A DNA stretch of 64,000 nt from Octopus vulgaris (taxonomy: Eukaryota). The stretch spans positions 95,542,001 to 95,606,000 of the forward strand of contig OX597824.1 in the NCBI GenBank assembly GCA_951406725.2, read 5' to 3'. Under the pieces are notes generated by a model, which did not search any database, had not been told where the DNA came from, and saw only the letters and a program-made list of their open reading frames with translations. The translations under genes were made by a program, and so were the position numbers. This document shows, piece after piece, positions 14,642 through 63,979 of this stretch; within the stretch, counting starts at the first letter, position 1, and each line of letters starts with the position of its first letter.

Positions 14642-14955
14642 CTCCTCGACTTATGACCAATGCAATTTATGACCATCCACACTTACGACTACAATAAATA
14701 AGAAAATAAATAAATAAGTCTAAAATCACTTTTGGTATGTTGGGCAGCTGCATGTATGATAACTATGGCAGCATCCGGTAACGCAGACCTCCCTCAGACC
14801 CAGAGATCTACTGCCTACCATTATCATCTCTCACTCAGTCGCTTTTAAGCATCAGCTGCGTTTAAATGAGAATAGTGTTAAAAAATATAAATCCGAAATA
14901 CGACCAACTTGACTTACGACCTGTCAGTCAGAACGGAATCCAGCCGTAAGTCGAA
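14636..14955. mobile_element. Tigger/pogo-like MITE
   Basis: TCGACTTATGACC ... GCCGTAAGTCGA inverted ends with internal ACTTACGAC sub-repeats. Confidence 0.55.
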
Positions 14956-15119
14956 AACAAAAGTGCATTGTGCATCAGTATAGCATCTCCCATGTCACTT
15001 CCATTGAGATCCACCATAAACGCTCATTGCTCTCCTTTACTCATTACCCAACACTCATGCAAACTACTTCGTCCAGTCCCACTTCACCAGAGAAGCCAAT
15101 CTACTTACCTGCCAATATT

Positions 15120-15352
15120 TATTTCCTTACTACCCACAAGGGGCTAAACATGAAGGGGACAAACGAGGACAGACAAACGGATTAAGTCGATTAAATCGAC
15201 CCCAGTACTCAACTGGTACTTTATTTATCGACCCCGAAAGGATGAAAGGCAAAGTCGACCTCGGCGGAATTTGAACTCAGAACGTAACGGCAGACGAAAT
15301 ACGGCTACGCATTTCACCTGGTGTGCTAACGTTTCTGCCAGCTCGCCACCTT
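15120..15352 (-). mobile_element. tRNA-derived SINE family B
   Basis: Head GGTGGCGAGCTGGCAGAA...GAGTTCAAATTCC, core GCCTTTCATCCTTTCGGGGTCGATAAA. Copies 14085-14300(-), 18066-18207, 21455-22040(-), 32014-32332, 37636-37850, 60160-60556(-), 63570-63935. Confidence 0.85.
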
Positions 15353-15999
15353 ATTGTTTGTTGTTTACGCTGAAGATCAATCATATTGATCTCAACGATC
15401 TTGGAAACTCTTCAGAGGTGAAGACCATGCACCCTGCATCACCTTCACCCCACAAAATCATAAACAAAGACGATAATGAATCTATTTTGTAAATATTGTT
15501 GTTGTACCTTGACTAAAAATAACAAAGATAACGATAGAGAAAACACCTCACAGCCTGCATTGATACGTTGGGGTAAAAAAAAAAAAACATTTAAACATCG
15601 TTTAATAGAATATCAAACACGGTCCTTTCGCCACAAGGGGATGCACTGTCTCTCTCTGTGTCTGTCTGTCTGTCTCTCTCTCTCTCAGTTCTTCTTCTTC
15701 TTCTCCTCCTTCTTCTTCTTCTTCTTACTTCTCTCATTAATTTATAACCAAACGTACCTTCCACAGAAGACTAAACATCTCATTACGCTGTCTGTTTGTC
15801 AAGTTTTCAAGCAAAAAAAAAGCAAAGCCCAAAAAAGCCAAAAACAATCACAGGAGACGTTATTGTAATTGGAGGATATTTTTCCATTCCTATGAAGATA
15901 CATTTGTCAAACTAAAAACCATATCTGTTCAGGAACGTTTTAATAGGAACGAGCCATGTTTATAGCTTGTATGGCAAAATAAACATCTGAGGCGCTTTG

Positions 16000-16390
16000 C
16001 TCCACACAGAAATGCTACTCAGAGGTATTGCAAGCTCTTTCGAGTCCATTGCAGAGTCGCAAATCCTTCTGTATCATCAGCCAGTATCTCAGAGTCACAG
16101 GTGTTTCGCCCCTTAGCCTATACGCTTAGCATGAGTGGAGAAACGAGGACTAAACTAGTTTTCAACTGCAGAAGGGTTCTCCTTGTGGTCTCTTGGTCAC
16201 CACCGCCATCTTGAGCTGCTTTCAGTTGCCATGCCTGTCTCCTTCGTGGTCTTCCTTTTTTTTTCAGTTATTTGGCTTTCAAACCAATCTTCTTCTGGGA
16301 ACAGCACACCAATGTAGCTGGGAAGCCCCAGCAGCCAACTTCAATGGGAAATGGGGCCGCATGACACCTTTTGACTTCTACATTTAGAAT
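16000..16390 (-). mobile_element. RLE-type (HERO/NeSL-like) non-LTR retrotransposon C-terminal remnant
   Basis: FPIEVGCWGFPA matches the PIEVGCRGF motif of restriction-like-endonuclease retrotransposons. Confidence 0.6.
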
Positions 16391-16542
16391 ACAAGTTAAG
16401 AACAGTAATAAATACTCGAGATACAGAATATAGGAGAAGATAGCAAGGAGGGTTATCACCGCTTCTATGTTACAGAATCAGAAGAAATACTTGAGCGAAG
16501 AATTAATCAAAAGATTAACTAACGAAAACAAAACGATGTTTT

Positions 16543-16577
16543 GTATGTATGTATGTGTGTGTGTATGTATGTATATA

Positions 16578-16608
<31 letters not shown>

Positions 16609-16820
16609 GCGTATGGATGTATGTATGCATGTATGTATGTATGTATGTGTGTATGTATGTATGTATGTATGTATGTATGTATGTTATATATGTATGTATG
16701 TATGTATGTATGTACGTATGTATGTATGTATGCATGCATGTATGTGCGTATGTACGTATGTATGTATGTATGCATGCATGTGTGTATGTATGTACGTATG
16801 TATGTATATATGCATGTATG

Positions 16821-16854
<34 letters not shown>

Positions 16855-17016
16855 TGCATGCATGTATGTGTGTATGTATGTATGTATGTATGTATGTATG
16901 CATGCATGTGTGTATGTATGTACGTATGTATGTATATATGCATGTATGTATATATGTATGTATGTATGTATATATGTATGTATATATGTATGTATGTATG
17001 TATGTATGCATGTATG

Positions 17017-17048
<32 letters not shown>

Positions 17049-17270
17049 CATGTATGTATGTATGTATGTATGTATGTATGTATGTATGTATGTATGCATG
17101 TGTGTATGTACGTATATATGCATGCTTGCTTGCATGCATGAATGCATGTCTATGTATGTATCTATGCGTATATGCATTCTTACATGTATATATTTGCATA
17201 AATATTGGTGCACACACAAGTGTGTGTGTGCGCACACATATGTGTGCGAGTGTATGTGTGTATGTGTGTT
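16543..17270. repeat. Long (TATG)n compound microsatellite
   Basis: Direct reading. Confidence 0.95.
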
Positions 17271-18207
17271 TTGTAAAGCGGCCGATCAGCAATGTCATTA
17301 GAACTTCGGATTGATAGCTTTGCAAATGGAACTCAAATCTCACTCAGGCCATCTTTGCCTTTCATCCTTTCTCAGTCAATAAATAATAAAATACTAGCTT
17401 TGCACAGGGACCGATTCTTCTCTTTTTCTCACTCTTTCGTCGTGTTTTTCTCCTTGAAGAAATTGGCTGTTGTCGGAGCAGGAGTGTGATAGGCTCTGCC
17501 AGGTTCAAAAAGTGCTAAAAACCTACAGGGCGTCAATATGGTAGCCCTACGTTTTCGTCAAAGAGCTGAATGCTTGAGGCAATATATGGCACATTACTGT
17601 GTGTGTATATGTGTGTGTGTGAATGTATTTTTCTTGTAGTACATGTTTTATCTAATTGGATTTCTTTTACCAGCAACTCACCTAATAAATCATACGTTTA
17701 ATAAAACTTGACCTTATATTTAATATGTAAACCATGAAATCAGTCGTTGCCCTCTTGCTGCTGGTTAAAGGCCTTCCTCTTTGCTCTCCAGCTGGTGTGA
17801 GAGCTGTATCTAAAAGTATCAGCTGTCCAAACCAACATGTGAGCTTCTGTTTACTATACGTACTTCACTAATGTAATCACATGCATAAAGCGGTGAACTG
17901 GTAGAAACGTTAGCACTTCCTGGGGTTGACTCTGTCTTTCTTCTTTTCAGGGTTGATAAATTAAGTACCAGTTAAGCACAGGGGTCAATGTAATTGACTT
18001 AAATCCTACCTCCAAATTGCTGGCTTTGTGCCAAAATTAGAAACCAATATTAAGTGACATTTCTAAGGCGGCAATCTGGCAGAATCGTTAGCAAGACGGG
18101 CAAAATGCTTAGCTGTATTTTGTCTGCCGCTATGTTCTGAGTTCAACTTTGCCTTTCATCCTTTCAGGGTCGATTAAATAAGTACCAGTTACGCACTGGG
18201 GTCGATA

Positions 18208-18980
18208 TCATCATCATCATCATCATCATTTAGCATCCGCTTTCCATGCTAGCATGGGTTGGACGGGTCAACTGGGGTCTGTGAAGCTGGAAGGCTTCGT
18301 CAGGCCCAGTCAGATCTGGCAGTGTTTCTACGGCTGGATGCCCTTCCTAACGCCAACCACTCCGCGAGTGTAGTGGGTGTTTTTTACGTGCCACCGACAC
18401 GGTTGCCAGACAGAGCTGGCAAACGGCCACGAACGGACGGTGCTTTTACGTGTCACTGGCACGGGGGCCAGCCGAGGCTGGCAACGAACACGAACGGATG
18501 GTGCTTTTACGTGCCACCGACACGGGGCCAGACAGAGCTGGCAAACGGCCACGAACGGACGGTGCTTTTACGTGTCACCGGCGCGGGGCCAGGCGAGGCT
18601 GGCAACGAACACGAACGGATGGTGCTTTTACGTGCCACCGACACGGGGGCCAGGCAGAGCTGGCAAACGGCCACGAGCGAATGGTGCTTTTACGTATCAC
18701 CGGTACGGGTGCCAGACGAGGCTGACAGCGGACACGAACGGATGGGTCACTTAACCCCTGCTTTCTGATATATGATTTGATTTTGATTGTTCTCACTGGT
18801 CTTGCCGGGTCTTCTCACGCACAGCATACTTCCATAGGTCTCGGTCTCTGGTCATTTCCTTGGTGAGACCTAGAGTTCGAAGGTCGTGCTTCACCACCTC
18901 GACCCAGGTTTTCCTGGGTCTACCTCTTCCACAGGTCCCCTCAACTGCCAGGGTGTGGCACTTTTTCACACACCTATCAA
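18208..18980 (-). mobile_element. RTE LINE 3' fragment with expanded 3'-UTR minisatellite, inserted in a family B SINE
   Basis: RGRPRKTWVEVVKHDLR at 18940-18880; ~60-bp alternating units 18377-18750; (GAT)n tail; SINE halves at 18066-18207 and 18980-19060. Confidence 0.85.
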
Positions 18981-20039
18981 CTTAATCCGTTTGTCTGTCC
19001 TTGTTTGTCCTCTCTGTGTTTAGCCCCTTGTGGGTAGTAAAGAAATAGGTATTTCGCCCATCTATCGATTTCTCTTGCTGAACCACTAGGTTACGGGGGT
19101 CGTAAACACACCAACATTGGTTGACAAGCGATGGTGGTGGGACAAACACGGACACACAAATACACACACACACACACACATACATATATACGATGGGCTT
19201 CTTTTAGTTTCTGTCTACCAAATCCACTCACAAGGCTTTGGCTGGCCCAAGGCTATAGTAGAAGACACTTGCCCAAGGTGCCACACAGTGGGACTGAACC
19301 CGGAAAGCAAGCTTCTTATCACACAGCCATGCATGCGCCTACAAAGAATATTTTGTTTTTATCTTTATATTTGTTTCAATCATTGGACTGCGGCCATGCT
19401 GGGGCACAGCCTTCAGCGGTTTTAGTTGACTGAATCAACTCCAGTTCTTTTAATTTAATTTTAAAAGTCTGTTACTTATTCTCTCAGTTCCTTTTGCGAA
19501 CCGCTACATTACAGGGACATAAACAAACCAACATTGGTTGTGAAGCAAGGGTGGGGTTCACATGCACACACACACACGTGTGCACACATTTATATTTATA
19601 TAATGGCAGGCTTCCACACAATTTTCATCTACCAAATTCACAAAGCATTGGTCAGTCCAGGACCATAGTAGCAAACTTGCCCATAGTGCCATGCAGTGGT
19701 ATTGAACCTGGCACCATGCGGTAACAAAACGTGCTTCTTGACTACACACGCATAAAATTCCGCTTTTTATTATCTTTGCTAGATGAAGGGACAGCCTCCA
19801 AAACATCAAATTTCACTTCTCCCCACGATATACCGTCGCCTTATCAAAACGCTTGAAGTTCACTGTATAATTCTTACCGGCGCAGTGTACCACCAGTTTG
19901 CTTGGACCCTGTTGCCATCCATCCATCCATCCATCCATCCACCCATCCACCTTCTTTACCCACAATTCCTGGGTGGGTCGTGGGAGTGGAGTTCTTAGGC
20001 ACCTCTTCTATAGGGTTGTATCAGAAGTAATTGTCATTA

Positions 20040-20330
20040 CACTTTCTGGCTGGATTTCCAAACCATAACCAATTAAGACTGTGGATATCATCCAACCATC
20101 TCGCCCACTGCCTCCTCTTAGGTTTCCTGCCAGTCGGTTCGACTTAAAAAATCCCATCTTGCGATTATTTCTTGCAAACATTCTATTCCCATGTCTGTAG
20201 TACCGGAGCTGTGATCCCCCAGTTCGTAGAGGTAGCAGCTTGACCTGGATGGAGTCCTGATGTCCGAGCTATGCACCCTGTTGAGTAATGTTACTCCAGA
20301 AGTCCTTCGGAGGAACCCCATTTCAGCTAG
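20040..20330 (-). mobile_element. Old RTE-clade LINE remnant
   Basis: EMGFLRRTSGVTLLNRVHSSDIR, with frameshifts. Confidence 0.65.
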
Positions 20331-21454
20331 GGTTTTTGTTGTCTTCTATTTGTGTGTATATGTGTGTTGTCTGTTTATATTGAAAAAGAGTTTAAATGTA
20401 CCGGATTTGTTCTGTTTACAAACATAATTTAAAGTATGTTTGTACTCATTTATCTTTCATTTTTATTTTATTTTGTCAGTTATTATAAACAAACTTTAGT
20501 TTTATTTAAATTTGGGGGAGAAGGACAGTTTGTTTTTTTTGTCAGCTGTTTGGTTTCAAATGTTTCACAAGTGATACGACTGAAAGATCAGCAGCGTTGT
20601 CAATTCCTCGTCACTAGGTCAGTTTTGGGGATAAAATCTGGACGACAAACTTCGCTTGAAATGTTTTGTTTAAGATTTGTCCATTTCTTAAATCGTTTGT
20701 CCAAATCCAGTCACTGAAACGGTGTTGAATAAAGAAACTACTGCGATAAAAATCAAACGAAAAGATTATTTTTCTTCGCTTTGGTCGGATTATATCCCAC
20801 AAAATCTTATTATTTGATTTAGGCTAAACCGACACTTAACGTGGTGTATGTTAAGAAAAACAAAACAAAAAAAAGAAGCAACACTCGAGAAGAGAAAGAA
20901 AACAAAAGAAAAGAAAAAGAGAAAAAAAACAAAGAAAAAAGAGCAGGAAAAGAGAGAAGGCGAAGATAATGGAGACAGAAAGAGGAAGTTGGGACAACAG
21001 GTACAGAGAGGCGAATGTCATGGCAATCTTTCCTAACCAAATAAGTTAGCAATTGCTTGACGGCAAGCAGATGTGGTCGTCAAAATGTGGTCCACATCTT
21101 GATGGCAAACAGATGTGGAAGCTACGGTCCTGAATCAAGCAAAGACCGGGGCAGAGCATTTGGCATCTAGATTGTTGCCAAGTGTTCACAGTCCTTTGCT
21201 AGTTGGGCATCGTAATAGGTGGAAGTTCTATGAAGGATTAATACAAACAACAGCATTCTTGGGGAAACTCTGGGGCATAATGAAAATCAAACAGGTTGGT
21301 CTATTCCAGAGGACTTTTGGGCCAGAACCTACAGATAATTTCCTGAAATCCGTGGCCTGGAAGTGCTTTCAGAGAGTTGGGTGTTGCAAGTTGTTTGAGA
21401 TAAATTCTATAGGACAGAAATGCTGTCAGCCAGGTCTGATGAACTTTTTGGTCA

Positions 21455-22040
21455 CAAAGGGCTAAACATAGATGGGACAAACAAGGACAGACAAACAGAT
21501 TAAGTCGATTACATCGATGCCAGTGCATAACTGGTATTTAATTTATCGACCCCGAAAGGATGAAAGGCAAAGTCAACCTCGGTGGAATTTGAACTCAGAA
21601 TGTAAAGACAGAAAAGATACCTATTTCTTTATTACCCACAGGGGGCTAAACACAGAGGGGACAAACAAGGACAGACAAACAGATTAAGTCGATTACATCA
21701 ACGCCAGTGCATAACTGGTATTTAATTTATCGACCCCGAAAGGATGAAAGGCAAAGTCAACCTCGGTGGAATTTGAACTCAGAATGTAAAGACAGACAAA
21801 ATACCTATTTCTTTACTATCCACAAGAGGCTAAACATAGAGGGGACAAACAAGGACAGACAAATGGATTAAGTCGATTATATCGACCCCAGTGCGTAACT
21901 GGTACTTAATTTATCCACCCCGAAAGGATGAAAGGCAAAGTCGACCTCGGTGGAATTTGAACTCAGAACGTAGCGGCGGACGAAATACCACTAAGCATTT
22001 CACCCGGCGTGCTAAGGACTCTGCCAGCTCACCGCCTTGA
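21455..22040 (-). mobile_element. Tandem trimer of family B SINE (184-bp period)
   Basis: GCTAAACA at 21461, 21645, 21829; a single head at ~22040. Confidence 0.88.
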
Positions 22041-22785
22041 GGATTGTAAGAAACCCTGAGAATTTCAACAGAATATTCTTAAAGCTGATATTTTCCTGCA
22101 AATGAAACCTGCTGATGCTTCAGCGCACACATTGAATTATGGTACTGTTTATGCTAAAACAAAGGTAAATGACCTGAAGTCATTGTGTTTAATACGATAA
22201 TGTAGTATTAACATATTGATATATATTTTAATGCTTTATGAATGTAGTTGACACGTTTTGACATATTTTGACAAGGTCTATTTATCATCTGTAAAGTTCC
22301 TAGATTGTACCTAAGACAAACGGTCAGAGATTAAAAGTGAGTCACTCACTCTTTACGTTGTAGGCAAGACAAAAGATAATCGAATGGGGATTTTTTTTTT
22401 TTTTTGTGGGTTAAGTTGTGGAAGAAGAGCTTAAATAAGATATGGATGATGCTAGCAGACGTATATGTGTTTTAGGCAGGAAAAGGTGATTGGGGGGGAG
22501 ACCTCAAGACAACTGTGTTGTTGTTTAGTTCTCAAGTGAATTCAGGATCAAAAGCTTTCCGGGTATAACTATATCGGCCTTTTATCTACGTTGATCACAT
22601 ACACACATTAATATATATTTATTTTATTTTCTTTCTCTGCTTATTTTTGTGTTCCTTTCTGTTGAAGAGCGTTGGCTTGAAACGTAAAAGACTTTCTCAC
22701 TTCCTGAGCGTTAAACTAATACCTCTGTTTGTTGTTTACACACACATCTTCCTCTTTTGTTTTGATTTTTTTTGTAAATTCCAAC

Positions 22786-22853
<68 letters not shown>

Positions 22854-23858
22854 ATCCAAACACGAACAAAGAGAAAACACAACAACGCGAGGACGTGGAA
22901 CAAGTATAGTGTTATTGGACTAGGCGCGGGCATGGCTGTGTGGTTAGGGAGCTTGCTTCCTAGCTACATGGTTTCGGGTTCAGTCCCACTGCGTGGCACT
23001 TTGGGTTGGTGTCTTCCACTATAGCCCCGAGCCGACCGGAGCTTTGTGATTGAATTCGGTAGGTGGAAGTTACTGCCGTGTGTGTATGTGTGCGTATAGC
23101 TGCTCAGTGCCTCTCCGAAAGAGAGAGAGGACACTCATATAGGATGACTCATGCCACCATAGGGCTTTATTTAGTCCTGAGTGGCCTTCCCTCCTTTTAG
23201 TGTGAGACCATTCAGGATTTGATAATTGGAGGGAGTGCTGGCTACAAACTCCCCATTATTACTATCTTTCTTCTTCCTAGTTACTCTCTCCCATCCTTAT
23301 AGAATGTGTCTCCTCTATAGCAAGACATCTGCACTTGTCTTTCTACTGTATTTTAGGCTCCCAACACTTAGGCATAAAGCCACCTACCCTTCCTAAATAC
23401 TCCTCTACCCCACTCAATTGATTGGGGATTTCTATTGTTATTTTCCTGTCTTGCAAATCTTTTTGGTGACCTCACTAGTGCTGGTGGCATGAAAAAAGTA
23501 CCCAGTACACTTTGTAAAGTGGTTGGTGTCAGGAAGGGCACCCAGCTGTAGAAACCATTCCCAAAGCAGACACTGGAGCTTAATACAGCCCGCTGGTTCA
23601 TCGAACGCTGCCAAACTGTCCTATCTATGCCAGCATGGAAAATGTATGTTAAATGATGATAATGGCAATGATGATGATGATGATGAGGATGATAAGGTAA
23701 AGATGACCTAGGAGGGATTTTGACTCAGAGAATGTAGTGCCAAGAGAAAATATAGCCACACATTTCGTCCAACTCAGTTGTGATTATCCCAACCTGCCAC
23801 TGTAAGCCCAACATCTAACCAGCCACGAAAGAAAATGTTATTTCTATCAAATTCTTAC

Positions 23859-23919
23859 CTCTGCGAGTGGATACATCAAAGACGACTCCTTTTAAGGCCA
23901 AATAAATGGGTTTGGTGGG
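23859..23919 (-). CDS. NENF: Neudesin exon 2
   Basis: CAG acceptor 23920-23922, GTAAG donor 23858-23854; PTKPIYLALKGVVFDVSTRR + G (phase 1 joins AA of exon 3 = Glu); human QPIYLAVKGVVFDVTSGK. Confidence 0.94.
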
Positions 23920-25663: not shown

Positions 25664-28132
25664 CAGTGGTTCCCATCCTGTTGTCTGCAGAACACCTGGT
25701 GGTCCGTGGATCCCTAGTGGTCACAAAAGGTAATACTGGGGATCCATGAACATGTTAAGCTGACGGACCTTTCAATATCCTGGGGTCCGTGGCAAAACTC
25801 ATTTAAATAAAAGTGGTGAAAAGAAAGAGGCTTGGAGAAGCCATTATGAAAGACTGCTGAATGTGGAGAATAAATGGGAGGAGGAGAGCCTGCCAAATGT
25901 TGACCCAGTAGAGGGACCAGCTATCCGAATAGACAGCTCCCTTGTAGTTAAGGCAATTAAGGGTATGAAACCAGGTAAAGCCCCCGGTCCATCAGGAATC
26001 ACTGCTGAGATGCTTAAAACAGCTGGTTATGTGGGCCATGGCCTAGTCACCCGCATTGTAAACCAGGTAGTTCATAATGGAGTCATACCCAATGACTGGC
26101 GTAGCAGCACCATAGTCAACTGCTACAAGGGTAAGGGTGATGCTCTAGATAGAAATAACTACAGGGGTATTAAACTGTTGGATCAGGTGATGAAGGTCAC
26201 AGAGAGGGTCATAACCCATCTCATTAGGGTGAGAATTTACTTAGATGAGATGCAGTTCGGTTTTGTGCCAGGTAGAAGCACCACTGATGCTATATTCCTG
26301 GTCCGACAACTGCAGGAGAAGTACCTAGCTAAAGATAAACTCCTCTACATAGCTTTTGTGGACTTGGAGAAAGCCTTTGACAGGGTCCCCTGATCCCTTA
26401 TCTGGTGGTTGATGCGGAAACTGGAGATTGACGAATAGCTAATAAGGGCTGTACAGGCTCTATACAGAGAGGCTGTCAGCAAGGTTAGGATTGGCAACGA
26501 ATATAGTGAAGAATTCCGGGTAGAAGTAGGTGTACACCAGGGCTCAGCCCTCAGTCCCCTTTTATTCATCATAGTCCTCCAGACAATAACAGAGGAATTC
26601 AAAACAGGTTGCCCCTGGGAGCTCCTCTATGCTGATGACCTGGCGCTCATAGCAGAATCACTACCGGAACTAGAAAAAAAATTTTGGGTGTGAAAGCAAG
26701 GGTTAGAATCAAAGGGCCTTAGAGTAAATGTAGCAAAGACCAAAGTTATAGTAAGCAGAAAGGCGAACTCAGCACCCCCCCCCCCGGGCAGGTGGCCCTG
26801 CTCGATCCGTAGGAAAGGTGTAGGTAGAAACTCCATTAGATGTACCCAGTGTAAGCTATGGACGCATAAGAGGTGCAGCAACATCAAAGGGAAATTAACT
26901 GATAAGATAGCTTTCATGTGCGGCAGATGCACAGGGACAATAGACACCACAGATACTCAGAAAACAGATTCCATCACACTCCAGGGGAAGAAACTAGAAG
27001 TAGTTGATAGTTTCCGCTACCTGGGTGACCAAGTTAGTAGTGGAGGTGGATGCTCAGAGAGTGTCACCACTAGAATATGAATAGCCTGGGCAAAGTTTAG
27101 AAAGCTCCTACCCCTACTGGCGACAAAGGGTCTCTCGCTCAGAGTGAAAGGTAGATTGTATGATGCATGTGTGTGAACTGCCATGCTTTACGGTAGTGAA
27201 ACATGGGCGGTGACTGCAGAGGACATGCATAGACTTGAAAGAAATGAAGCTAGCATGATCCGCTGGATGTGTAATGTCAGTGTGCGCGCACAACAGAGGG
27301 TAAGCACCCTGAGAGAAATGCTGGACATAAGAAGCATCAGATGTGGTGTGCAAGAGCAACGCTTGCAATGGTATGGTCATGTACTGCGAATGGATGAGGA
27401 GAGATGTGTGAAGAAGTGCCGCTCCCAAACAGTTGAAGGTATCAGGGGGAGAGGTAGACCCAGGAAGACATGGGATGAGGTAGTCAAACATGACCTCAGA
27501 GTGTTGGGCCTCGCAGAGGCAATGACAAAGGACCAAGATCTCTGGAGATATGCTGTGACTGCAAAGACCCGGGCTGCTTCCTGCACCAGTCCCACATAGC
27601 CCCTGCCCATTCAAAGTACCTTGGACTCCAGAACATCCCGCTGTACTTGAGGAGACCTGTTGAGTCAAGTACATGAGCATCGAAATAAATATCAATGGAA
27701 ATAGTAGTTGTGACACCTGTGCCGGTGGCACATAAAAAGCACCATCCGAACGTGGACGATGCCAGCGCCGCCTCGACTGGCTTCTGTGCCAGTGGCACAT
27801 AAAAAGCATCATCCGAACGTGGACGATGCCAGCGCCGCCTTGACTGGCTTCCGTGCCGGTGGCACGTTAAAAGCACCAACCGATCGTGGCCGATGCCAGA
27901 CTCCCCTGGCACCTGTGCCGGTGGCACGTAAAAAGCACCCACTACACTTGTGGAGTGGTTGGCGTTAGGAAGGGCATCCAGCTGTAGAAACACTGCCAGA
28001 TCAGACTGGAGCCTGGTACAGCCTCCTGGCTTCCCAGACCCCGGTCGAACTGTCCAACCCGTGCCAGCGCGGAAAACGGACGTTAAAACGATGATGATGA
28101 GTCCTTGGTAGTGAAAAGGTTGGGAACCACTG
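25664..28132. mobile_element. hAT (Charlie-like) MITE split by an RTE insertion
   Basis: TIRs CAGTGGTTCCCA (25664) / TGGGAACCACTG (28132); imperfect 8-bp TSD ACCTAGAG / ATTTAGAG. Confidence 0.75.
25818..28100 (+). mobile_element. 5'-truncated, pseudogenised RTE-clade LINE (RT domain, 3' UTR, (GAT)n tail), antisense in NENF intron 1
   Basis: KAPGPSGI, NYRGIKLL, QFGFVPGRST, FVDLEKAFDRVP, GVHQGSALSP, LLYADDL (~26622-26642), MLYGSETW, RGRPRKTW; in-frame stops at e.g. 26391, 26436, 26691. Confidence 0.95.
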
Positions 28133-30049: not shown

Positions 30050-30714
30050 GTTGAAACACTCCTGTCACAACCTGGGACCTTGAAGACTGCTTAAATGCAA
30101 GAAAGTATACTAGTCCCTTAATATTTGATATTCAATATTTCATCTATTCAATAAGACAATCAATACTTCACTTCATTTTACTATATATACTATTTACACT
30201 GGGGTTATGGATGTGTACTTGCATAGCAAGTGACCTGATCTGAAATCGTGTGCTGGAATGAAAACAATTGCAGCGTGGAAGGTGTTTATAAGCCATTTAA
30301 GAAACACACAAAAACCGTTAGATTCACTTCAACATTTAAATTTAATTTGTCAAAATATTTCCGTCGCTTTGAGACCGCAACCTCTTCACTGACAAAACTT
30401 CGTGCAGCATCTCAGTGTATTTATACTATATATTCTATATTCTACATTAATATTATAAAGAATATAAATAAAACATAAAAAGCAGACAGAGTTGGAATTC
30501 CTTTGAATAATATATACGTATACATATATATTGTCAGTTGACCAAAAAAAGCTGGTATGTCTGTCAAAACTGAAGTTCAAGCATTCTAATAATTAGCTAA
30601 CTTTAGTCTGTCCCTTGCACATGTCTCAATAGACACTTGACGCTTCAGTATTGTATGGCAAGAAGTTGCAAAGAAACAAACTGCATGTTGTTGGGTTCTT
30701 GGGATCAGCCTGAG

Positions 30715-36062: not shown

Positions 36063-36697
36063 CATATATGTATGTATGTGTGTGTGTGTATCATCACCTT
36101 CATCATTTAACATCTGTTGTCCATGCTGGCAGGGATTGGATGGTTTGATGAGGGTGGCACGCTGGAAGGCTGCACCAGGCTCCAGTCTGATGATGATGAT
36201 GATGATGGTGGTGATGATGATGGTGTGTACATCTGACCCATGCAATCATGGAAAAGTAGACATTAAATTTATGATGATGAGGATGATGGTGGTGATGATG
36301 AGTGTATGTATACACCTGTTGCAATATGTTCCTTTGTACTGAGTTTTTAACTATTTGTAATCCTGCATTACTTATCTATTGCACCAGAGATCTAATAGAT
36401 GGTGCAGATAGTGTTACCCAGTGTGGTGCTTATCAGAACCGTCGTTAAATTTACAGTCCTCATTGTCATTGTCATTATCGTAATCATCGTTTTAACATCC
36501 ACTTTTCCCCTGCATGGGTCAGATGGAATTCGTTGAGGCAGAATATTAGTTAGAAAAGAGACAATTATATCAACTACAGACTACCAAATAAATACATGTA
36601 TTTAATATTCACTACAATAAGAATGAGTGAAAGGAGCTAAGTAAATGACAATCAGATTTTGATGGCTTTTAATTAAGCATCTTCAAATATTACCTAC

Positions 36698-41306: not shown

Positions 41307-44300
41307 TACATACACACACACACACAAATTTCTTTGTTTTGTAGTTAGAACATAAGTGTCTCAGTGTCCTTCTTTGGCATCAGTTATATTCCATTGGCGC
41401 TAGAAGAAGAGGATTAGTTGGACGTTAGTCTCGTATTGAAAACTTAAAGAATCTCATTTAAACTATGGCATCTGTATAATGGGAGGATTAAAAGACACAA
41501 TACTTTGTAAATTGTGCAGAATGTAAAAGGGATTAGCATTATCTTGTCTAAATTAATAAATCTAGCAAGCTTTGTATAATAAGGAATAAGTGCTAGCATG
41601 GCTGTGTGGTTTAAGAAGCTTGCTTTCTAGCTGTGTGGTTTCAAGTTCAATCCCTCTGCGCAGCACTTTATGCAAGTGTTTTTCTACTGTGGCTCCAGGC
41701 TTTTACTTGTTTCAGTCATTGGAGTGTGGCCATGCTGGGGCACCACCTTAAAGGAGCCAAACGACCCTGGAACTTGCTGTTTGCAGAGTATGTGGTACTT
41801 GTTCTACTGGCCGCTTTCATCAAAACATTAAATTTAGTGGATGTAAACAAACAAACACTGGTTGTCAAGCAGTGGCAGGGTGGGTGTGTGGCAAACACAG
41901 ACACAAAACCCAGCAGATTCACACGTGACAAAACACTAATTGCTGTGTTCATAACATTCGATTTCATTAACGCAAGGGACAAGGCTGGCCCCTTTGACTT
42001 ACTGGTGCAATGTGAAATAAAGTGTCTTGCTCAAGGACAAACTGCACTGCTGGGAACTGAACTCACGACCGCATGATCATGAGCCAAACACCCTAACCCC
42101 TAAGCCATGTGCCTTCACCAGAATTATTAGCACATTGGACAGAATAGTTAGGTTAAGTTAAGCCTTTTGCTCTTTACGGAGCATAGGGCATCAAGGACTT
42201 TTCCCTTGATTCTGGGCTGTCTTCTTCTCCTCTTCCAGGTCTTGTTGGCTTTGAATTGTCATTGATGCTTTTTTTCTAGGTAGGGCTGTTGCAAAGGGCT
42301 CTATGCAACCCCATTTTTACCTCTGGTAAGAGGTGGTCTCTATTAGCCTGGCCACTATCCTTTGACCTGTCCAGCATGGGAGACCCTACCAAGAGGGTAC
42401 ACAGGCTACCACAATGCAACAAGGACTGGGACTCATAGTAGGACCTTTGAATAGGGTTTAGTAACTGGTAACTGAAATAATTTTTGGTCCCGAAGAGGAA
42501 GACCAGTCTTTGTGATGCAGTCCCTGCAATATTGAGGATTTGAAATTGCAGGGAGAGATCTTTAGTGATGATTAAGGTAAAAAATTTGTTAGATGACATT
42601 TTCTCATATATTGCTAAAATAACAAACAGGGTCAAGGGTGGAATGCTTTTCTACCACAAGATCCTATTTCAGTAGCAGTGACCCTGAGAGCTCTGCCAGG
42701 AATGCAAGGTTCTCGTAGGGGTAGGGCCTCTCGTACTGGACAGGTCAAAGGAATAGAGACCACATTAATATGGATCACCTCTTCCCAGAGGTAAAAATGG
42801 GTTTGTGTAGGGCTAACATCTCTACTACTACTACTACTGCTGCTGCTGCTATTACACATGTTATCATCCTGGTGCGTATGTACCATAAACCAACAAAGCA
42901 GTTTCTACTTTCACTCAGTATCCTAGAAATAACAGCCAAATTCGTCTCAAGCCCACACCTTACTTTCTTAAAATGAGAAGGATAGCATCAGATAATGTGG
43001 AGTCCTGGACTGGATGCACATTGCCTGAAAATAAGGTGAGATGGCCACAACTGAATCTTGTTTTGATCACAGGTCTGCTTGGTCAGAGCTGACTTGGTGC
43101 TAAACAAATGTAGCATCCACTACTACCACCACCACCACCACATAATGTTCATATCTTGTACTGCTGCTGCTACTACTACTACTACCTCTACTAGACCGCT
43201 GCTGCTGTGACCACCACCATCCAACAAAGAAAACTCTATGTGCCAACTTGTCTTGTTAGAAATAGCAGCCAAATCTCTTTCAACTCAAATGATTATCTTT
43301 AAAAAAAGAATGCATTCTTTACCATCATTGAAAAAAATACAAATTCTCTTGTGCTAAGTGTTCAGGGTCACAGAGTTCATAACTCTTCAAAACAGTACTT
43401 TAACCCTTTCAATACCAACCCTGGCTGAAACCAGCTCTGGCTCTGAGGTACAAATGTCTTGTTTCCTTAAGTTCTGAATGAAAATCTTCCACCAAACCTT
43501 AGTCACAATTCATGTTCTTAACACCAGCTGAAAGATAACTAAGTTATTTTACTAAATTCTTTGTTATATTTAAAATTAATTGAATGAAACACAGAACATC
43601 TCAACAGAATATATGGTGATACCAACTGGTGTAAGAATGCCTCTACCTAGTTCTTTGATAAAAAAAAAAAAAACTGTCCATTTTAAAGGTATTATATTCA
43701 GGTGCAGCCCTAGCAAGGTACGGGTGTGGCTGTGTGGATGAGCGGTTTGCTTTCTAACCATGTGGTCTATGACTCAATCACTGTTCACTTCCCGTGCAGT
43801 ATTCTAAGTAATGTACATGCACTTTTGGCTACTTTTTCTGATGAGTCATAGTACACCTGAGCACTGTATTTGATAAGTTCATCATTATTATTATTACAGA
43901 GCATTGGGCCTCATGGAAGCAAAGTGGCTGAGTTTCTTTTGAACGTTGGGCCTCACGGAAGCAATGACTGAGGCCTTTGGCATTATGCTGTGCTTGAGAA
44001 GAAGACCCATCAAGCCAACCAAAATCGCAGTTGTGGCAGATACTGGTGTCACACAAATGGCGCCCATTACACTCTTGGAGTGGTTGGTGTTAGGAAGGGC
44101 ATCCAGGTGTAGAAACACTGCCAGATCAGACTGGAATCTGGTGCAGCCTTCCAGCTTACCAGCCCCAGTCAAACTGACCAACCCATGCCAGCATGGACAA
44201 TGGACGTTAAATGATAATGATGAAGATGATGACGATGGTGGCAGGGATATTAGAATTTGAGCCTGTCTATTTTTATTGACAAGTCAGAGACGTTAGGGTA

Positions 44301-50179: not shown

Positions 50180-51049
50180 TACAAGGTGGTATCGAAAAGT
50201 TCCTGGACTAGTTATGTTTAATAAAAAATATAACTTGTGTATGAGGAGACCTATTGAGTCAAGTACATCAACATCAAAATAAAAATCAAATGGAAATTGT
50301 AGTTGTGATACCTGTGCCGGTAGCACATAAAAAACACCATCCGAATGTGGCCGATGCCAGTGCCGCCTTGACTGGCGTCCGTGCTGGTGGCATGTAAAAA
50401 GCACCAATCAATCGTGGCCATTTGCCAGCCTCCTGGCCCCTGTGCTGGTGGCACGTAAAAAGCACCCACTACACTCACAGAATGGTTGGCGTTAAGACGG
50501 GCATCCAGCTGTAGAAACACTGCCAGATCAAGATTTGAGCCTAGTGCAGCCTCCTGGCTTCCCAGACCCCGGTCGAACCATCCAACCCATGCTAGCATGG
50601 AAAACAGACGTTAAATGATGATGATGATGATGATTTCTGGGGGTGACGCTCACGGCAGGTCTTCAAGATCGCTCATGGTCTTCCATCAATGTTTTTCCGC
50701 TTTTGAAGCACCCATGCCACTTGGAACATCGCATACAACCCATTGCCTCGTTGCCTTAAGCTTGCCACAGCATGCTCAATATCTCTGTAGCAGACTTCCT
50801 AAGTTTAATGCAAAATTTCCCATTAGCTCTTTGTTCCAACTTTCTGTCCCTGACAACAATCATCACAGACTACAGCAGACACATGGTCACAAAAACACAA
50901 ATTTCACAACTTGCAAAGTAAACACAACGATGTCATTCAGCACCTTGTCTCATGAAGGTCACCGCTAGCTCCCTCTAGGCATGCAACCATGTGCTGCCAT
51001 CTGTTGGCATGCTGCAGAATTAGTGTAGGAACTTTTCGATATTACCTTG
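50180..51049. mobile_element. Mariner-like non-autonomous element with nested RTE 3' end
   Basis: TIR CAAGGTGGTATCGAAAAGTTCCT / AGGAACTTTTCGATATTACCTTG; RTE tail at 50240-50633. Confidence 0.7.
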
Positions 51050-54523: not shown

Positions 54524-54773
54524 TTTAATACAATTTTACTGAACCTTCAGTTTTTTTTATATGCTAGACCACTGGTGTGAAATCGATGTTAATTAAATTA
54601 ATATCTAATTTCTCACCCTCATTTTAAATTTAAATATATATATATATATAAACACACACAGATGTATGGAAAGAGGGTGTGTCAGAGAGAGAGACAGAGA
54701 GAGAGAAGCTGCTAAGCGTATGGCTACAAAATGCCTCGTATTATTGTAGAATAAATAAATAATGAGGTCCCAC

Positions 54774-54868
54774 CTTTCGTTATCTGCAAGATTTTTCTCC
54801 CGCAAAGATCTGTCTATCCGTTCGATATGTGTCCGACATGCCTTAATTCCTTTCTCGACAGCTTCGAT
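54774..54868 (-). CDS. CCDC167: CCDC167 exon 2
   Basis: TTCTTCAG acceptor 54869-54871, GTGGGA donor 54773; 95 nt, IEAVEKGIKACRTHIERIDRSLREKNLADNE(R); human [32 protein letters not shown]. Confidence 0.88.
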
Positions 54869-54979
54869 CTGAAGAACGACGAAAGATCATAGATTATAGA
54901 TCACATCAAATCACCCCAAACATAACAAAGATGCTAATATACATCACAAACGAGGGTTTGAAGAAAAAGCTGTACTTGC

Positions 54980-55000
54980 CTGACCAAAGATGCTGGGCAT
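54980..55000 (-). CDS. CCDC167: CCDC167 coding exon 1 (MPSIFGQ) with GC donor
   Basis: CAATATG start with upstream in-frame TGA; CAG|GCAAGT donor gives the required phase 0; spliced CDS 21+95+53+107 nt = 91 aa. Confidence 0.72.
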
Positions 55001-55739
55001 ATTGATGACATAACACGTGTCAAGCACTCAAAGTCGACTTCCGTTTTTGAAGCTAATTAAAATATTAAATTTCCCACTATTTTCACAAAAATACCTTTGA
55101 TTATTCTTTTCCGTATTTTTAATTAATTATGGAGACTCGATATCAATACTTAAATCAATTAATGTCGCATATGTAAAACGCTTAATTATTGAATCTATTT
55201 CGCACGCGCGCACTGATTCATGCATAATCAGTCTTTTGAGGCAAATAAATGGGGAACCTGCTTTCTGGTAAACAGGCAATCAAATATGAATGATATACGA
55301 TCGATTTTGAGTCGATTTCGACGGTGATCATCCCAGCTGTTCGATGACAGAATTACATAGTCATTGTATCATATTACAGGTGGCTGTGTATTCCATAGAC
55401 ACTTGTATACTTAATGTAATATTAAGGTGTTAATGGAATCATGTGACAGGATTCCCCAGAGTTTCCTATTCAGCTGTATTTGTTCGCGAGGCCTCGGTCG
55501 ACCTGAATCTTTAGCAGGAGACATTAGCACAAAGTGCCGCGTGAAGGGACCGAATTCTAGGCCCCAAAATTGCAAAGTAAACGTCTTAATCATTTACATG
55601 AATTGATATATATATGTATTAATTAAATAAGTTAGTGGGTACTTGTCAATTGTCGTGGTCCCGGTTTTGCACACGCGAATTTGCGCGTGCGCGCGCGCCA
55701 GACGTAGGTACTCGATACTCGAGATCCTACGAGGTGACT

Positions 55740-55751
55740 TGCGCATGCGCA
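55740..55751. promoter_or_regulatory. NRF1/EWG consensus palindrome TGCGCATGCGCA in TIR (mirror copy 58426-58437)
   Basis: Exact 12-bp consensus within a CpG-dense subterminal block; function not shown. Confidence 0.45.
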
Positions 55752-56130
55752 GTGCAGAATTCGCGCGTGCGCGTTAAACCCCCCCCCCTAAAAAAAAAGG
55801 TGTTGGATTTCACTAAAAATATATATGTGTGTGTGTGTATATAACATTTTCAATTTTACACAAAAAAATTACATAGTCGCTTTCCTCGCGGATTTACAGA
55901 AAAATGAATTAATTACTATTTTACAGAATAAAATTAATGAATTAATTATATAAATTAAATAATTCTTGAAAATTAATTAATATTAATAATATTTTTTGAA
56001 CAAAGTAAATAATTTATAAAACTTGGTTAATAATTTTTTTTACACAAACGCGAACGTATATAATTTGTGAAACTTTTTTTTTTTTACAGACGTATATAAT
56101 TTGGTAAACTTAATGAATTAATTTCTTCTC

Positions 56131-56552
56131 ATCATCATCATCGTTTAACGTCCGTTCTCCATGCCAGCATGGGTTGGACGGTTCGACCGGGGATCTGGGA
56201 AGCCAGAAGGCTGCACCAGACTCCAGTCTTATCTGGCAATGTTTCTACAGCTGGATGCCCTTCCTAACGCCAACCACTCCGAGAGTGTAGTGGGTGCTTT
56301 TTACATGCCACCCGCACAGGTGCCAGGCGAGGCTGGCAACGGCCACGGTCGGATTGGTGCCAGTCGAGGCGGCTCTGGCATCGGCCACGATTCGGATAGT
56401 GCTTTTTACGTACCACCAGTCCAGGGGTCCTGGCATTTGCCGGGTGCCACACTTGCCCCAACATGTCTTCGCAAGCAAAGGGGGTTGGCATGGGTGCCTG
56501 TCGTGGGATGAGGTTCGATATCAACTTCGCTTGCCTCAACAGGTCTTTGTGT
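56131..56552 (-). mobile_element. RTE 3'-end fragment inside left TIR (mirror copy ~57627-58049 on +)
   Basis: Same 3' UTR and (GAT)n tail as the RTE at 27640-28100. Confidence 0.88.
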
Positions 56553-56988
56553 ATAAATGTATAAATTTTTCGCACTAAATTCTTTCCGTAGAATTTATCA
56601 AAAAACGCGCAAAATTATTCCGTAGACTTTATCAAATTAAAAAAACGCAAAATTAATATATTTTTTGAAATTGCAAATTATTTAGAATATAAAACAAATT
56701 AAGTTAAATTTTAAAAATAAATGTCATATACTTATACTCTGTAAGGTGCTGTGTTCACACTTCAATTTACTATTTTCTAGAAATGTTGCTTTTCTAATTG
56801 AAACAATTTTTCTCAATCTCCATTTAAAAGTCCATAATGCCTCTTGAGCCATATCAAAATGAACAACTTTGAATTACCCGGTGGTGGTGGTGGTGTGAGG
56901 TTCTAATTTTTTTTCTGATCTCTCTTTGCCCCCCCCCTAGATGGAGGTGTGGTGGGGAGACAGATGAAAGATGTTTCATTCTCTACTA

Positions 56989-57041
<53 letters not shown>

Positions 57042-57164
57042 CTTAAACCTACACGATATAGTCTATAAATTTGGGATGTTTTTGAAAGATAATATATTTT
57101 GTCATCAGAATATATATACTTTCTCACACTACAATTAAGATATATTTATTTTAAATCGTTCATC

Positions 57165-57197
57165 TTTTCCCGCGACAACAAAAATTGGGCGCGAAAA
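57165..57197. promoter_or_regulatory. Inverted pair of E2F-type sites in the foldback spacer
   Basis: TTTTCCCGCG 57165-57174 and GGGCGCGAAAA 57187-57197 (both fit TTTSSCGC). Confidence 0.35.
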
Positions 57198-58817
57198 TTT
57201 TTCTAAATATTAGCTGAATGAACAACTGAGATAAAGAGGGGGCAAAGAGAGATCAGAAAAAAAATTAGAACCTCACACCACCACCACCACCACCACCACC
57301 GGGTAATTCAAAGTTGTTCATTTTGATATGGCTCAAGAGGCATTATGGACTTTTAAATGGAGATTGAGAAAAATTGTTTCAATTAGAAAAGCAACATTTC
57401 TAGAAAATAGTAAATTGAAGTGTGAACACAGCACCTTACAGAGTATAAGTATATGACATTTATTTTTAAAATTTAACTTAATTTGTTTTATATTCTAAAT
57501 AATTTGCAATTTCAAAAAATATATTAATATTGCGTTTTTTAATTTGATAAAGTCTACGGAATAATTTTGCGCGTTTTTTGATAAATTCTACGGAAAGAAT
57601 TTAGTGCGAAAAATTTATACATTTATACACAAAGACCTGTTGAGGCAAGCGAAGTTGATATCGAACCTCATCCCACGACAGGCACCCATGCCAACCCCCT
57701 TTGCTTGCGAAGACATGTTGGGGCAAGTGTGGCACCCGGCAAATGCCAGGACCCCTGGACTGGTGGTACGTAAAAAGCACTATCCGAATCGTGGCCGATG
57801 CCAGAGCCGCCTTGACTGGCACCAATCCGACCGTGGCCGTTGCCAGCCTCGCCTGGCACCTGTGCGGGTGGCATGTAAAAAGCACCCACTACACTCTCGG
57901 AGTGGTTGGCGTTAGGAAGGGCATCCAGCTGTAGAAACATTGCCAGATAAGACTGGAGTCTGGTGCAGCCTTCTGGCTTCCCAGATCCCCGGTCGAACCG
58001 TCCAACCCATGCTGGCATGGAGAACGGACGTTAAACGATGATGATGATGAGAAGAAATTAATTCATTAAGTTTACCAAATTATATACGTCTGTAAAAAAA
58101 AAAAGTTTCACAAATTATATACGTTCGCGTTTGTGTAAAAAAAATTATTAACCAAGTTTTATAAATTATTTACTTTGTTCAAAAAATATTATTAATATTA
58201 ATTAATTTTCAAGAATTATTTAATTTATATAATTAATTCATTAATTTTATTCTGTAAAATAGTAATTAATTCATTTTTCTGTAAATCCGCGAGGAAAGCG
58301 ACTATGTAATTTTTTTGTGTAAAATTGAAAATGTTATATACACACACACACATATATATTTTTAGTGAAATCCAACACCTTTTTTTTAGGGGGGGGGGTT
58401 TAACGCGCACGCGCGAATTCTGCACTGCGCATGCGCAAGTCACCTCGTAGGATCTCGAGTATCGAGTACCTACGTCTGACGCGCGCGCGCGCGCGAATTC
58501 GCGTGTGCAAAACCGGGACCACGACAATTGACAAGTACCAAGTTAGTGTTAGCAAATTTAATACATGAATTGATATTCAACTACACAACCACACATCATT
58601 GGTTTCCGTGTAGGCATAGTTTAGATCCTAGATCTGAAATACAGCATTTTCCTCTGTTAATTTAATTCTCGGGTCTCAACGTTTCTTAACCTAATTCAGT
58701 CACTTCTCAACCCTTCCTTGGTCTCCCACCCAACAACATGTAGCATTCATGCACACCAAACACTCACTCCAGTGTAGTCGTTTCTCCCACATATATCAGC
58801 AGCTCATATCTAAATCA

Positions 58818-61299: not shown

Positions 61300-61445
61300 T
61301 TAATCATCGTTAGTTTTTATTTGTGAAAGGAAACGTTCATTTTTTATGTGAGTCTTTTTACGCTTTTTCTTTAGATATGCTTCGACTTTGCCTTTTTCTT
61401 TTAATTCTCGATACTTTTGAGCAATCTGGAGCAATTTCTTGTCAG
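61300..61445 (-). CDS. RRP36: Ribosomal RNA processing protein 36, terminal exon
   Basis: Pyrimidine tract + CAG 61446-61448; (S)DKKLLQIAQKYRELKEKGKVEAYLKKKRKKTHIKNERFLSQIKTNDD*; human SEQRQLALAEKFKELKRSKKLENFLSRKRRRNAGKDRRHL. Confidence 0.88.
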
Positions 61446-63979
61446 CTGAATAAAAATGGAAAAGAGAAAACAAATTAAAAACATTATAATTAAACAAAGA
61501 CATTAGCATTATTCATTTCAAGCATAGACACAAACAAAACCAAACATTTATGGTAGATGTCTTTCTCTAAAGACCTTTAGCACTCTATGGAACATTGGCA
61601 CTATCAACAACTCTTCTCCACTGATCTTGACTCTAGGTTGATTCTTTTCTACTTCTCTCCAGTCAGACCTCTGGTTTTTCCTTCACAGCTTTCTTTTAGA
61701 TTTTGCTACACCAGGGTCATGTTTCCCTGTGAGAAGGCCTCTCCCAGGCCTTGCTGGTTTTGAATAACATTAGAATAGGTTGATTATAGTACTATAATAT
61801 ATCTCTATAATATATCTGTTAACTAACAAGGGAGCCTCTAAGTAGTTACTCAACCTGCAAGAAATAACAACCGAATCTCCTACTTACACTTGAACATTGC
61901 AAACAAGGATAAACTTGATGTTGGACAGGGTAATCCTATACATGTCCTGGGTATCACTCTAAACTGTAACCTAGTGAGGCCCTGGTTTGAGTGTCTCATG
62001 GTTGTAAGGAGCATAGATTCACCTCTTAGCCACTGCTGTTCCCAGGTTTACTCTGGCCTGCAGTAGTAGCACCAGCTATGGGTTAATTAGCATGTTGGGG
62101 AACTGCTCTTGGAAGAAGGTCATTCATTGGCACCGTCGTAACAGACCCAGGTCGGATGAAGCTGAAGATAACTCCATACTAAGAGAAGATAACTCCGTAC
62201 AACTCCTGCATCCTGATAATTATTGGACTTGTGGCACTTGTTGCATCTGACCAAAACAAATTTGGAGGATGAGATGGTGGGACAAATCATGCGTACTATA
62301 AGAATATTCCTTGTGCAGGGAGTTGAGCAAACCAGGACACCAGCATCAACACCATTAAAATGTTTTCATAAGTCCAGTGACAACAGGAAAAGAGATGACA
62401 GGGACAAGCAGACGATGCTACTGGAAGACTTTGTTTTTAATCCTGCAAATCAGTGGCCGTAGGGTGAAAAGAAGAAACTTCAGCCGTGTCTTGCTGAGCC
62501 TTTATTCATCGAAGGAATGAGAGAATCCACCATACCACCACCACCACATAAATTTGAAAAAGGACAGAGCAGAACACAAAAAACTGCATCTTACATGCCA
62601 TCAAATGTGATGTGTGTATCATCATCATCGTTTAATGTCTGCCTTCCATGCTGGCATGGGTGGGACGGTTTGACAAGAGCCGGCCAGTCAGAAGCATGCA
62701 CCAGGCTTCTGTAACTGTTTTTGTAGGATTTTTACAGCTGGATGCCTTTCCGAACACCAGCCACTCTGCAAAAGTGGACTTAGTGCTTTATACGTGGCAC
62801 AAGCAAGGTCATTTTTGGCAAGGGTTTTACAGCTGGATGCCCTTCCAAAAGCCAACCACTTTACAGTGTGGACTGGGTGCTTTGAAGTGGGACCTGCACT
62901 GACAGGGTCACCAAGTACTTGCAAGAATACAAATTGTGGAACAAGGCCAGCAAGTTCGGAGTAGGGGTAAATCGATTACATCAACCTCAGTACACAGCTG
63001 GTACTTATTTTATTAACCCTGGAGGATAAAAGATTATGTGGACCACAGTGGAATTTGAGCTTAGAATGTAAAGATATGAAATGCCACTAAACATTTTGTC
63101 CAGCGTGCTACTGATTCTGCCAGCGCCTCACCTTATGATGGGTATATTTTTATTTATTTTTATTTTTATCTAGTTTCAGCTCACAAGCCGTGGCCATGCT
63201 GGGGCACTGCCATATATTCAGTTTTGTTTAAAACAATATTATGATGTACTTGATCATCATCATCATCATTTAACATCCATTCTCCATGCTGGCACAGGTT
63301 GGATGATTTAACTGGAGCTGATAAGCCGGAGAGCTGCACCAGGTTCCAGTCTGATTTGGTGTGGTTTCTACGACTGGATACCCTTTTTAACATCAACCAC
63401 TCCAGGAGTGTAATGGGTGCTTTTATGTGCCACCAGTACAGGTGCCATTTACAGGACACCAACCATGACTATGACACATGGGTGCCATTCACATGGCACC
63501 AGCAACAACTTATAAATAGTATCAAGAGAAACAAATTTGACATTAATGAATGCAATATAATGAACATATAAGGTGGTGAGCTGGCAGAAACGTTAGCACA
63601 CCGGGTGAAATGCCTAGCCGTATTTTGTTTGCCGCTACGTTCTGAGTTCAAATTCCACCAAGGTCGACTTTGCCTTTCATCCTTTCGGGGGCGATAAATT
63701 AAGTACCAGTTACGTACTGGGGTCGATGTAATCAACTCAATCCGTTTGTCCTCTGTAGGTAGTAAAGAAACAGGTATTTCGTCTGTCTTTATGTTCTGAG
63801 TTAAAATTCCGCCGAGGTCGACTTTGCCTTTCATCCCTTCGGGGTCAATAAATTAAATACCAGTTGCATATTGGGGTTGATCTAATTGACTGGACCCCTC
63901 TCCAAAAATTATGGGCCCTGAGCCTAAAGTAGAAAAGAATATAAAGCAAAAAACAGTAGATTAACAAAAATAAACTTAC

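Follow-up and report, generated by a model that had tools for sequence, protein, structure and literature searches.

A 2,902-bp foldback DNA element of Octopus vulgaris was found to carry the same 424-bp piece of a LINE 3'UTR at the same position in both of its long inverted arms and, judging by the rare letters which they share, the two pieces descend from one insertion. The element belongs to a multi-copy family with LINE-bearing arms. We analysed a stretch of 64,000 nucleotides (assembly GCA_951406725.2, contig OX597824.1), referred to here as the window; all positions are those of the window, and the features discussed are listed in Table 1.

Table 1 Features of the octopus element and its surroundings.
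Feature	Positions	Strand	Basis or remark
Broken copy of a LINE, with reverse transcriptase, PHD finger, 3'UTR and (GAT)n	25821..28100	+	Tail homologous to the mirrored piece
CCDC167, first two coding exons	54773..55023	-	Match to Octopus species
Left target-site duplication AAGTTAGTG, 9 bp	55629..55637	+	Flank comparison; chance at a fixed position ~ 4e−6
Left arm (terminal inverted repeat, TIR), 1,296 bp, starts GGTACTTG	55638..56933	+	Arm alignment
Left arm, outer GC-rich terminal domain, 60% GC, 21 CpG	55638..55790	+	Composition, arm alignment
Left arm, AT-rich domain, 19% GC, short degenerate subrepeats	55791..56128	+	
Left-arm copy of the LINE (RTE-like) 3'UTR fragment, 424 bp, with (GAT)n tail	56129..56552	-	Arm alignment, tail comparison
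Left arm, inner domain: degenerate two-unit subrepeat of ~ 33 bp, (GGT)n, terminal C-run	56553..56933	+	
Central spacer, 304 bp, with (TA)26	56934..57237	.	Multi-copy; second spacer variant in family
Right arm, 1,302 bp, end is CAAGTACC	57238..58539	-	Arm alignment
541 bp skipped by LINE-less arm form	57574..58114	+	Runs X3 and X15; mirror position 56064-56605
Right-arm copy of the LINE (RTE-like) 3'UTR fragment; junctions as in the left arm, one substitution	57627..58050	+	Arm alignment, junction contigs
Right target-site duplication AAGTTAGTG	58540..58548	+	Flank comparison
RRP36-like gene, last coding exon	61300..61446	-	Pfam RRP36 E 0.0012, below curated cut-off

Structure of the element

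The element (55638–58539) has GG…CC ends, with GGTAC at the terminus, and is flanked by a perfect direct repeat which, among lengths of 4–15 bp, matched at 9 bp only. When aligned, its 1.3-kb arms (55638–56933 against 57238–58539) differ by 5 substitutions, by three homopolymer indels of 1 bp each and by 9 bp in the length of the (GGT)n run. Each arm consists of GC-rich, AT-rich and inner domains, arranged around a non-coding middle in a foldback layout of the modular-arm type (PMC4079207). The arm subrepeats are short and degenerate, comprising exact words of 9–14 bp and one two-unit pair which agrees at 26 of 35 columns, and a search of the inner domain for a coding remnant found none. Of the 5 substitutions between the arms, 3 fall in the outer domain, which, by contig depth, is common to more abundant relatives. 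When the inner and outer domains were compared as possible parts of one interrupted array, their direct similarity was reached by 54 of 300 shuffles (not significant) and their inverted similarity by 7 of 300 (weak).

The inner arm boundary is C9 on the left and G5 on the right, and a family variant has four extra letters in that run. The earlier note had described this C-run/G-run boundary as microhomology, beside its proposal of snap-back or template switching; the description holds, but the runs are simply the last bases of the arm and are uninformative as a scar, since complementarity at the inner end is true of any inverted repeat.

The 27-bp terminus had no exact match in metagenome and viral contigs and two matches within the window, both of them the outer ends of the element, with no third copy. 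An Rfam scan of the window gave 0 matches. Beyond the target duplication, a 15-bp direct repeat, TACATGAATTGATAT, lies at 55596–55610 and 58563–58577 (3 of 300 shuffles equalled its score) and is a small duplication already present at the target site. Part of the spacer (57051–57167) is common to divergent, more abundant repeats, represented by contigs with 9–12 differences and a depth peak at 57107–57168, and the spacer may therefore itself be captured repeat sequence. Elsewhere in the window there is a second small palindromic element (4105–4388, ~ 235–280 bp, 80% self-complementary) which is MITE-like and has a 93–94% relative at 30214–30410.

A target duplication of 8–10 bp together with long TIRs (> 100 bp) defines Mutator-like elements (MULEs) in PMC5499845. 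The 9-bp duplication and the arms of 1,296 and 1,302 bp fit MULE and foldback elements as described there and in PMC3169594. Merlin elements have a terminal 5'-GG, a target duplication of 8–9 bp and TIRs of 24–462 bp (PMC8101967); the GGTAC end and 9-bp duplication agree with this and the 1.3-kb arms exceed it; the arms may have been extended from a TIR that was shorter at first. A Pfam search of 7 reading frames from the element and 6 from its flanks found no transposase remnant, CCDC-167 being the only match below E 0.001, and phmmer with a 49-aa inner frame against 1.84 billion proteins returned 0 hits. Published repeat counts for O. vulgaris give 55 families of Mutator and 18 of Merlin, in a table that does not include the terminus of the element; the O. 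vulgaris repeat library may already contain this element family.

One LINE insertion in two arms

The earlier note had reported that an RTE fragment is mirrored in both arms with the same junctions and about one base of difference. This was confirmed by alignment, in which 425 of 426 aligned letters were equal, the sole substitution lying at 56366/57813, and the junctions were identical. The 5' edge of the piece is uncertain by a few bases (57627–57633), and no target duplication was seen when one was looked for around it.

We compared the two pieces with the other tails in the window and, for the right arm, with contigs from four public runs (X1, X3, X8 and X15, which are 4 of the 24 listed). 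Of 220 sites for which 3 or more other window copies could be compared, 8 have in both arms a letter at odds with a majority of at least 70%. In all four runs the alternative letter made up most of the contig depth: 95–99% at 58014, where the arms have G, 74–86% at 57959, where they have T, and 95–100% at 57674. Because both arms share letters which are rare among related tails, the two pieces can be traced to one insertion, in keeping with the proposal of the earlier note that a single insertion was copied from arm to arm. That note had also held that two independent insertions could not explain the pattern, and these are excluded by the identical 5' cut and 3' site, by the shared rare letters and by the probability of finding at most one difference in 424 letters by chance, which is 8e−9 even with 5% divergence in the pool and with junction identity not yet counted.

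Although LINE tails are very abundant by contig depth and some consensus noise is likely (homopolymer lengths near 58093 are unlike those of nearly all X1 contigs), two independent insertions or an assembly fold-back artefact would be an extremely improbable origin, the artefact being unlikely because the flanks are distinct and carry a perfect target duplication, the arms differ, and independent contigs of two runs bridge the spacer–arm junction with 0 differences.

The mirrored piece is non-coding 3'UTR, truncated at its 5' end, and is 76–92% identical to 11 other tails in the window. The tails which matched best over their length, at 27792–28100 (255/282) and 50311–50630 (261/292), are 89–90% identical to it, and (GAT)n stands behind this kind of tail both in the element and in several further copies. 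The tail at 27792–28100 comes after a broken reverse-transcriptase open reading frame (ORF) with Pfam RVT_1 and PHD matches. The ORF of this copy (25821–28100), which has its own endonuclease part absent, is 57% and 54% identical over ~ 580 aa to single-ORF endonuclease–reverse transcriptase–PHD proteins of 1,037 and 1,042 aa. This copy and another broken one (18207–18978, minus strand) retain the ORF end and repeated 3'UTR motifs, with a PHD finger inserted in the reverse transcriptase region. No labelled reference was present among the 120 listed protein matches to the ORF. The source LINE is probably of RTE type, as it fits that clade by its ORF architecture, its (GAT)n tail and a report of such LINEs in octopus. 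That report describes single-ORF RTE LINEs (PMC9115989), and a 3' end in a short tandem repeat is of RTE type by comparison with PMC3747384.

A multi-copy family with LINE-bearing arms

The queried stretch, or part of it, was contained in 20 of the 24 listed runs (9 studies, 4 organism labels). Run X1 contained 0.82 of the sampled words from this stretch, which is 81% element. It should be noted that contig depth is not a copy number and that depths given for X1 and X3 are those among the matches listed. In X15, contigs crossed the inner LINE–arm junction (57546–57655) at a depth of 348 and the tail junction (58024–58150) at a depth of 264; three divergent LINE pieces had depths of 4–8. A contig of X8 crossed the inner junction (57486–57655) at a depth of 19.9. 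The spacer–arm junction was bridged with 0 differences at a depth of 73 in X15 and 21.5 in X8, and a variant of it was found at a depth of 24 in X15 and 2,614 in X1 (among the matches listed). The spacer–arm junction contigs of X15 total 97, and the LINE junctions are 2.7–3.6 times deeper, which is enough for both arms; in X8 the arm was about as deep as the spacer and the expected 2:1 ratio was not shown.

From these depths, we estimate that there are tens of LINE-bearing arms or more and infer that other copies also have the LINE in both arms. In a further X8 contig, the flank which follows the terminus at 58540 is not that of the window copy. Together with the high-depth junction contigs, this second flank at the same terminus indirectly points to copies dispersed by transposition, and it bears out the suggestion of the earlier note that a DNA element carries and multiplies LINE sequence. 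Among the short contigs of the four runs we saw neither a contig of the whole element nor a second full-length copy, and the right flank (58595–58718) had no cover in any of the four.

Shortened relatives were also observed. Depth over the outer 130 bp exceeded that of the inner arm severalfold in 3 of the 4 runs, an indication of short relatives that have these ends in common. A further shortened arm variant is represented by an X3 contig (depth 1,645 among the matches listed), in which 58144 and 58455 are separated by 18 letters of other sequence.

Some arms are without the LINE. A joint of 57573 to 58115 was found at a depth of 130 in X15 and 1,948 in X3 (among the matches listed); it was not seen in X8, nor among the X1 matches listed. 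Measured against LINE-adjacent contigs, this form makes up 27–33% of arms in X15 and 31% in X3, the shorter side of the joint being 28 letters, below our comfort line of 30. The 541 bp which it skips comprise the LINE piece, 53 bp of inner arm and 64 bp of outer arm, with a 2-bp TT overlap. Since ordinary arm sequence has also gone and there is a 2-bp overlap, deletion is the simpler reading, and the LINE-less form is probably a later deletion. An exact ancestral empty site was not present among the 15 joints listed (189 more lie beyond them).

How and when the arms became alike

The account which we favour, and which we regard as probable, is that the LINE inserted into one arm of an ancestral element, that break repair carried it over to the other arm, and that the symmetric element was then multiplied by an outside transposase. 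The repair would have been templated on the partner arm, either as a long conversion tract or as the rebuilding of a whole arm, two routes from which the same product is expected. The copying would have taken place in a progenitor, before insertion at the present locus, and the transposase supplied from elsewhere would have been of Mutator type.

The order of these events is suggested by position 57529, where all four runs have the left-arm letter only, meaning that the right arm of the window copy has a private substitution. Because this substitution was left unconverted, the copying appears to predate the present insertion, and copying in a progenitor followed by transposition is likely. The tips of the arms may have separate histories, since the substitutions cluster outermost (3 of 5 within the outer 153 bp, p = 0.014) and at two of these both letters are present in all four runs.

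Alternatively, the arms could have been homogenised repeatedly in place, with the LINE and later mutations recopied between the arms in many copies. Palindromes of ape Y chromosomes behave in this way (PMC13629686), and both arms of the octopus element do share letters which are rare in the LINE pool. In X8, a single low-depth run, no contig bears the letter which both window arms have at 57674, and this would suit homogenisation between the arms at a later time rather than one single event. Against this, the window copy has retained its right-arm-only substitution at 57529, its (GGT)n run is longer than that of an X8 contig (in which it falls short of the right arm by 10 letters and is close to the left arm), and the proportion of sampled words present in X1 fits a young, uniform family. 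We therefore think repeated homogenisation unlikely.

It is also possible to arrive at a symmetric element with no conversion, if two adjacent, opposite copies with the LINE in one arm each were moved jointly by their LINE-bearing ends. Joint transposition of close or nested elements is one of the routes to new TIR pairings listed by Hunter et al. (PMC10401008), LINE-less arms do exist in X3 and X15, and the outer-tip differences are family polymorphisms. However, neither the element nor the window has an internal terminus, and the LINE-less form, which is also without 117 bp of arm, looks like a deletion. Such a composite origin is, in our judgement, improbable, and we retain the account of copying in a progenitor followed by multiplication.

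Genomic setting

The element lies between two genes. CCDC167 has four coding exons on the minus strand (55023–54970, 54871–54773, 36752–36693 and 35039–34935), with 83–97% identity to Octopus species for the searched exon; its start is ~ 620–640 bp from the element, which is upstream of it, and it is transcribed away from the element. The RRP36-like gene is transcribed towards the element, and its stop codon lies ~ 2.8 kb beyond the right end. Maize Mu typically inserts close to gene starts (PMC10401008); the position near the CCDC167 start is one site and no test of preference.

CCDC167 (34935–55023) is directly downstream of the RRP36-like gene, and the order of the two is suggested to be conserved because a cuttlefish protein record (P0125) fuses them. 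The first exon of CCDC167 has two in-frame starts, one with a GC donor, which match two annotated isoforms. Downstream of CCDC167 is a gene for a cytochrome b5-like heme-binding domain (8236–23919, minus strand; exons 9642–9532, 8442–8236 and 23919–23845), and an Octopus protein record (P0122) fuses these exons to CCDC167. Between CCDC167 and the element there is a GC-richer open frame of 48 codons (55433–55576, plus strand) with a GTAAAC donor-like end and no Pfam match; it is possibly a divergent exon, which would place the element inside a transcript.

Does the mirrored LINE piece act against the LINE?

The earlier note had further suggested that the hairpin triggers silencing of the LINE family, as Mu killer does in maize. 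In that case RNA from the mirrored tail would be diced to small RNAs which silence the LINE family in trans, and the element would have been kept for this. A transcript across the element would indeed form a long stem (−472 kcal/mol and z −57 for the inner 781 nt), as that of any long inverted repeat does; read-through from the RRP36-like gene, which ends 2.8 kb away and points towards the element, is possible; and Mu killer is proposed to act by a read-through hairpin RNA (PMC3440606).

Our results do not support this suggestion. The nearest gene, CCDC167, points away from the element, and the interval from the RRP36 stop to the element contains 15 AATAAA/ATTAAA hexamers. None of the 24 runs listed is registered as RNA, which speaks neither for nor against expression. 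The ratio of arm to LINE depth in X8, which is RNA by our guess, was 3.9e−4, compared with 1.3e−4 to 14e−4 in the other three runs. Related tails are already present in both orientations within the introns of CCDC167 (36090–36191 against 44125–44227, 82% over 103 bp), and the peak depth of the LINE tail is ~ 700–7,600 times that of the inner arm, so the element adds little. Mu killer is an inverted duplication of its target's transposase gene region; the octopus element has only non-coding LINE 3'UTR. Silencing in trans is accordingly highly unlikely.

A wider form of the idea, in which the family places the LINE 3'UTR by gene starts in perfect 424-bp hairpins, tens to hundreds of them, and read-through dsRNA, edited or diced, checks the dominant LINE, is very doubtful. 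If true, it would make a DNA transposon a mobile check on a retrotransposon, and a silencing role would matter far more than the reading we prefer, in which the mirrored LINE piece has most likely been carried along as an inert passenger.

Relation to known elements

A close likeness is to Mutator-like foldback elements, including Muta1 of Aedes, Tm1 of root-knot nematodes and homomorphs of maize Mu such as 10P, which likewise have long TIRs and a 9-bp duplication, are non-autonomous and lie near gene starts (PMC10401008, PMC5499845 and PMC3169594). In maize Mu, TIR symmetry has been regained, with the TIRs of 10P identical over 1,100 bp, and repair from an intact TIR has been proposed to explain this (PMC10401008). 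The octopus element differs from these in that no transposase was found with it, its subrepeats are few and degenerate, and each arm carries a LINE tail midway along its length, a layout outside their descriptions as compared here.

Galileo, a foldback element of the P superfamily, has a target duplication of 7 bp, against 9 bp in the octopus element. Its TIRs are likewise long and are extended by arm-to-arm copying in break repair (PMC3573991), but Galileo recruits its own interior, whereas the sequence in the octopus arms is a foreign retroelement. Acquired sequence also enters extended TIRs in Pack-MULEs (PMC3310237); these are elements of plants with fragments of host genes, while the octopus element belongs to an animal and has LINE 3'UTR.

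Outside of transposons, a NUMT inserted into one arm of a Y palindrome in Pan was likely gene-converted to the other and multiplied with the palindrome (PMC13629686), though those copies are ~ 100 kb apart and involve no transposon, target duplication or terminal signature. The 2Rj low-copy repeat of Anopheles has 5.3-kb inverted arms which are > 99% alike and contain transposon fragments (PMC1952172); it is a low-copy segmental duplication which its authors judged not to be a transposon. Maize Mu killer is likewise an inverted repeat which gives hairpin RNA if read through, but it mirrors part of its target's transposase gene and has been shown to silence (PMC3440606), whereas the octopus element mirrors only a 3'UTR piece from another class.

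Among titles and abstract openings, with subscription papers mostly outside this search, we found no report of an amplified DNA element whose two TIRs mirror a LINE tail or other retroelement. A possible direct precedent is a 2.4-kb modular foldback element of Ciona intestinalis, which Simmen and Bird in 2000 reportedly described, possibly with a SINE in both arms.

What the octopus element presents is a known process, the regaining of arm symmetry, in a new setting, that of a LINE tail mirrored in a foldback element. The likeness of long TIRs is still explained by several proposals, namely that a break is followed by conversion, that neighbours transpose jointly or that sequence is duplicated during transposition. 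A foreign marker of 424 bp, with rare letters and present in some arms only, lets these proposals be told apart by counting copies with the LINE in zero, one or two arms. The LINE tail has also likely been multiplied without reverse transcription, which would bias estimates of the age and copy number of the LINE.
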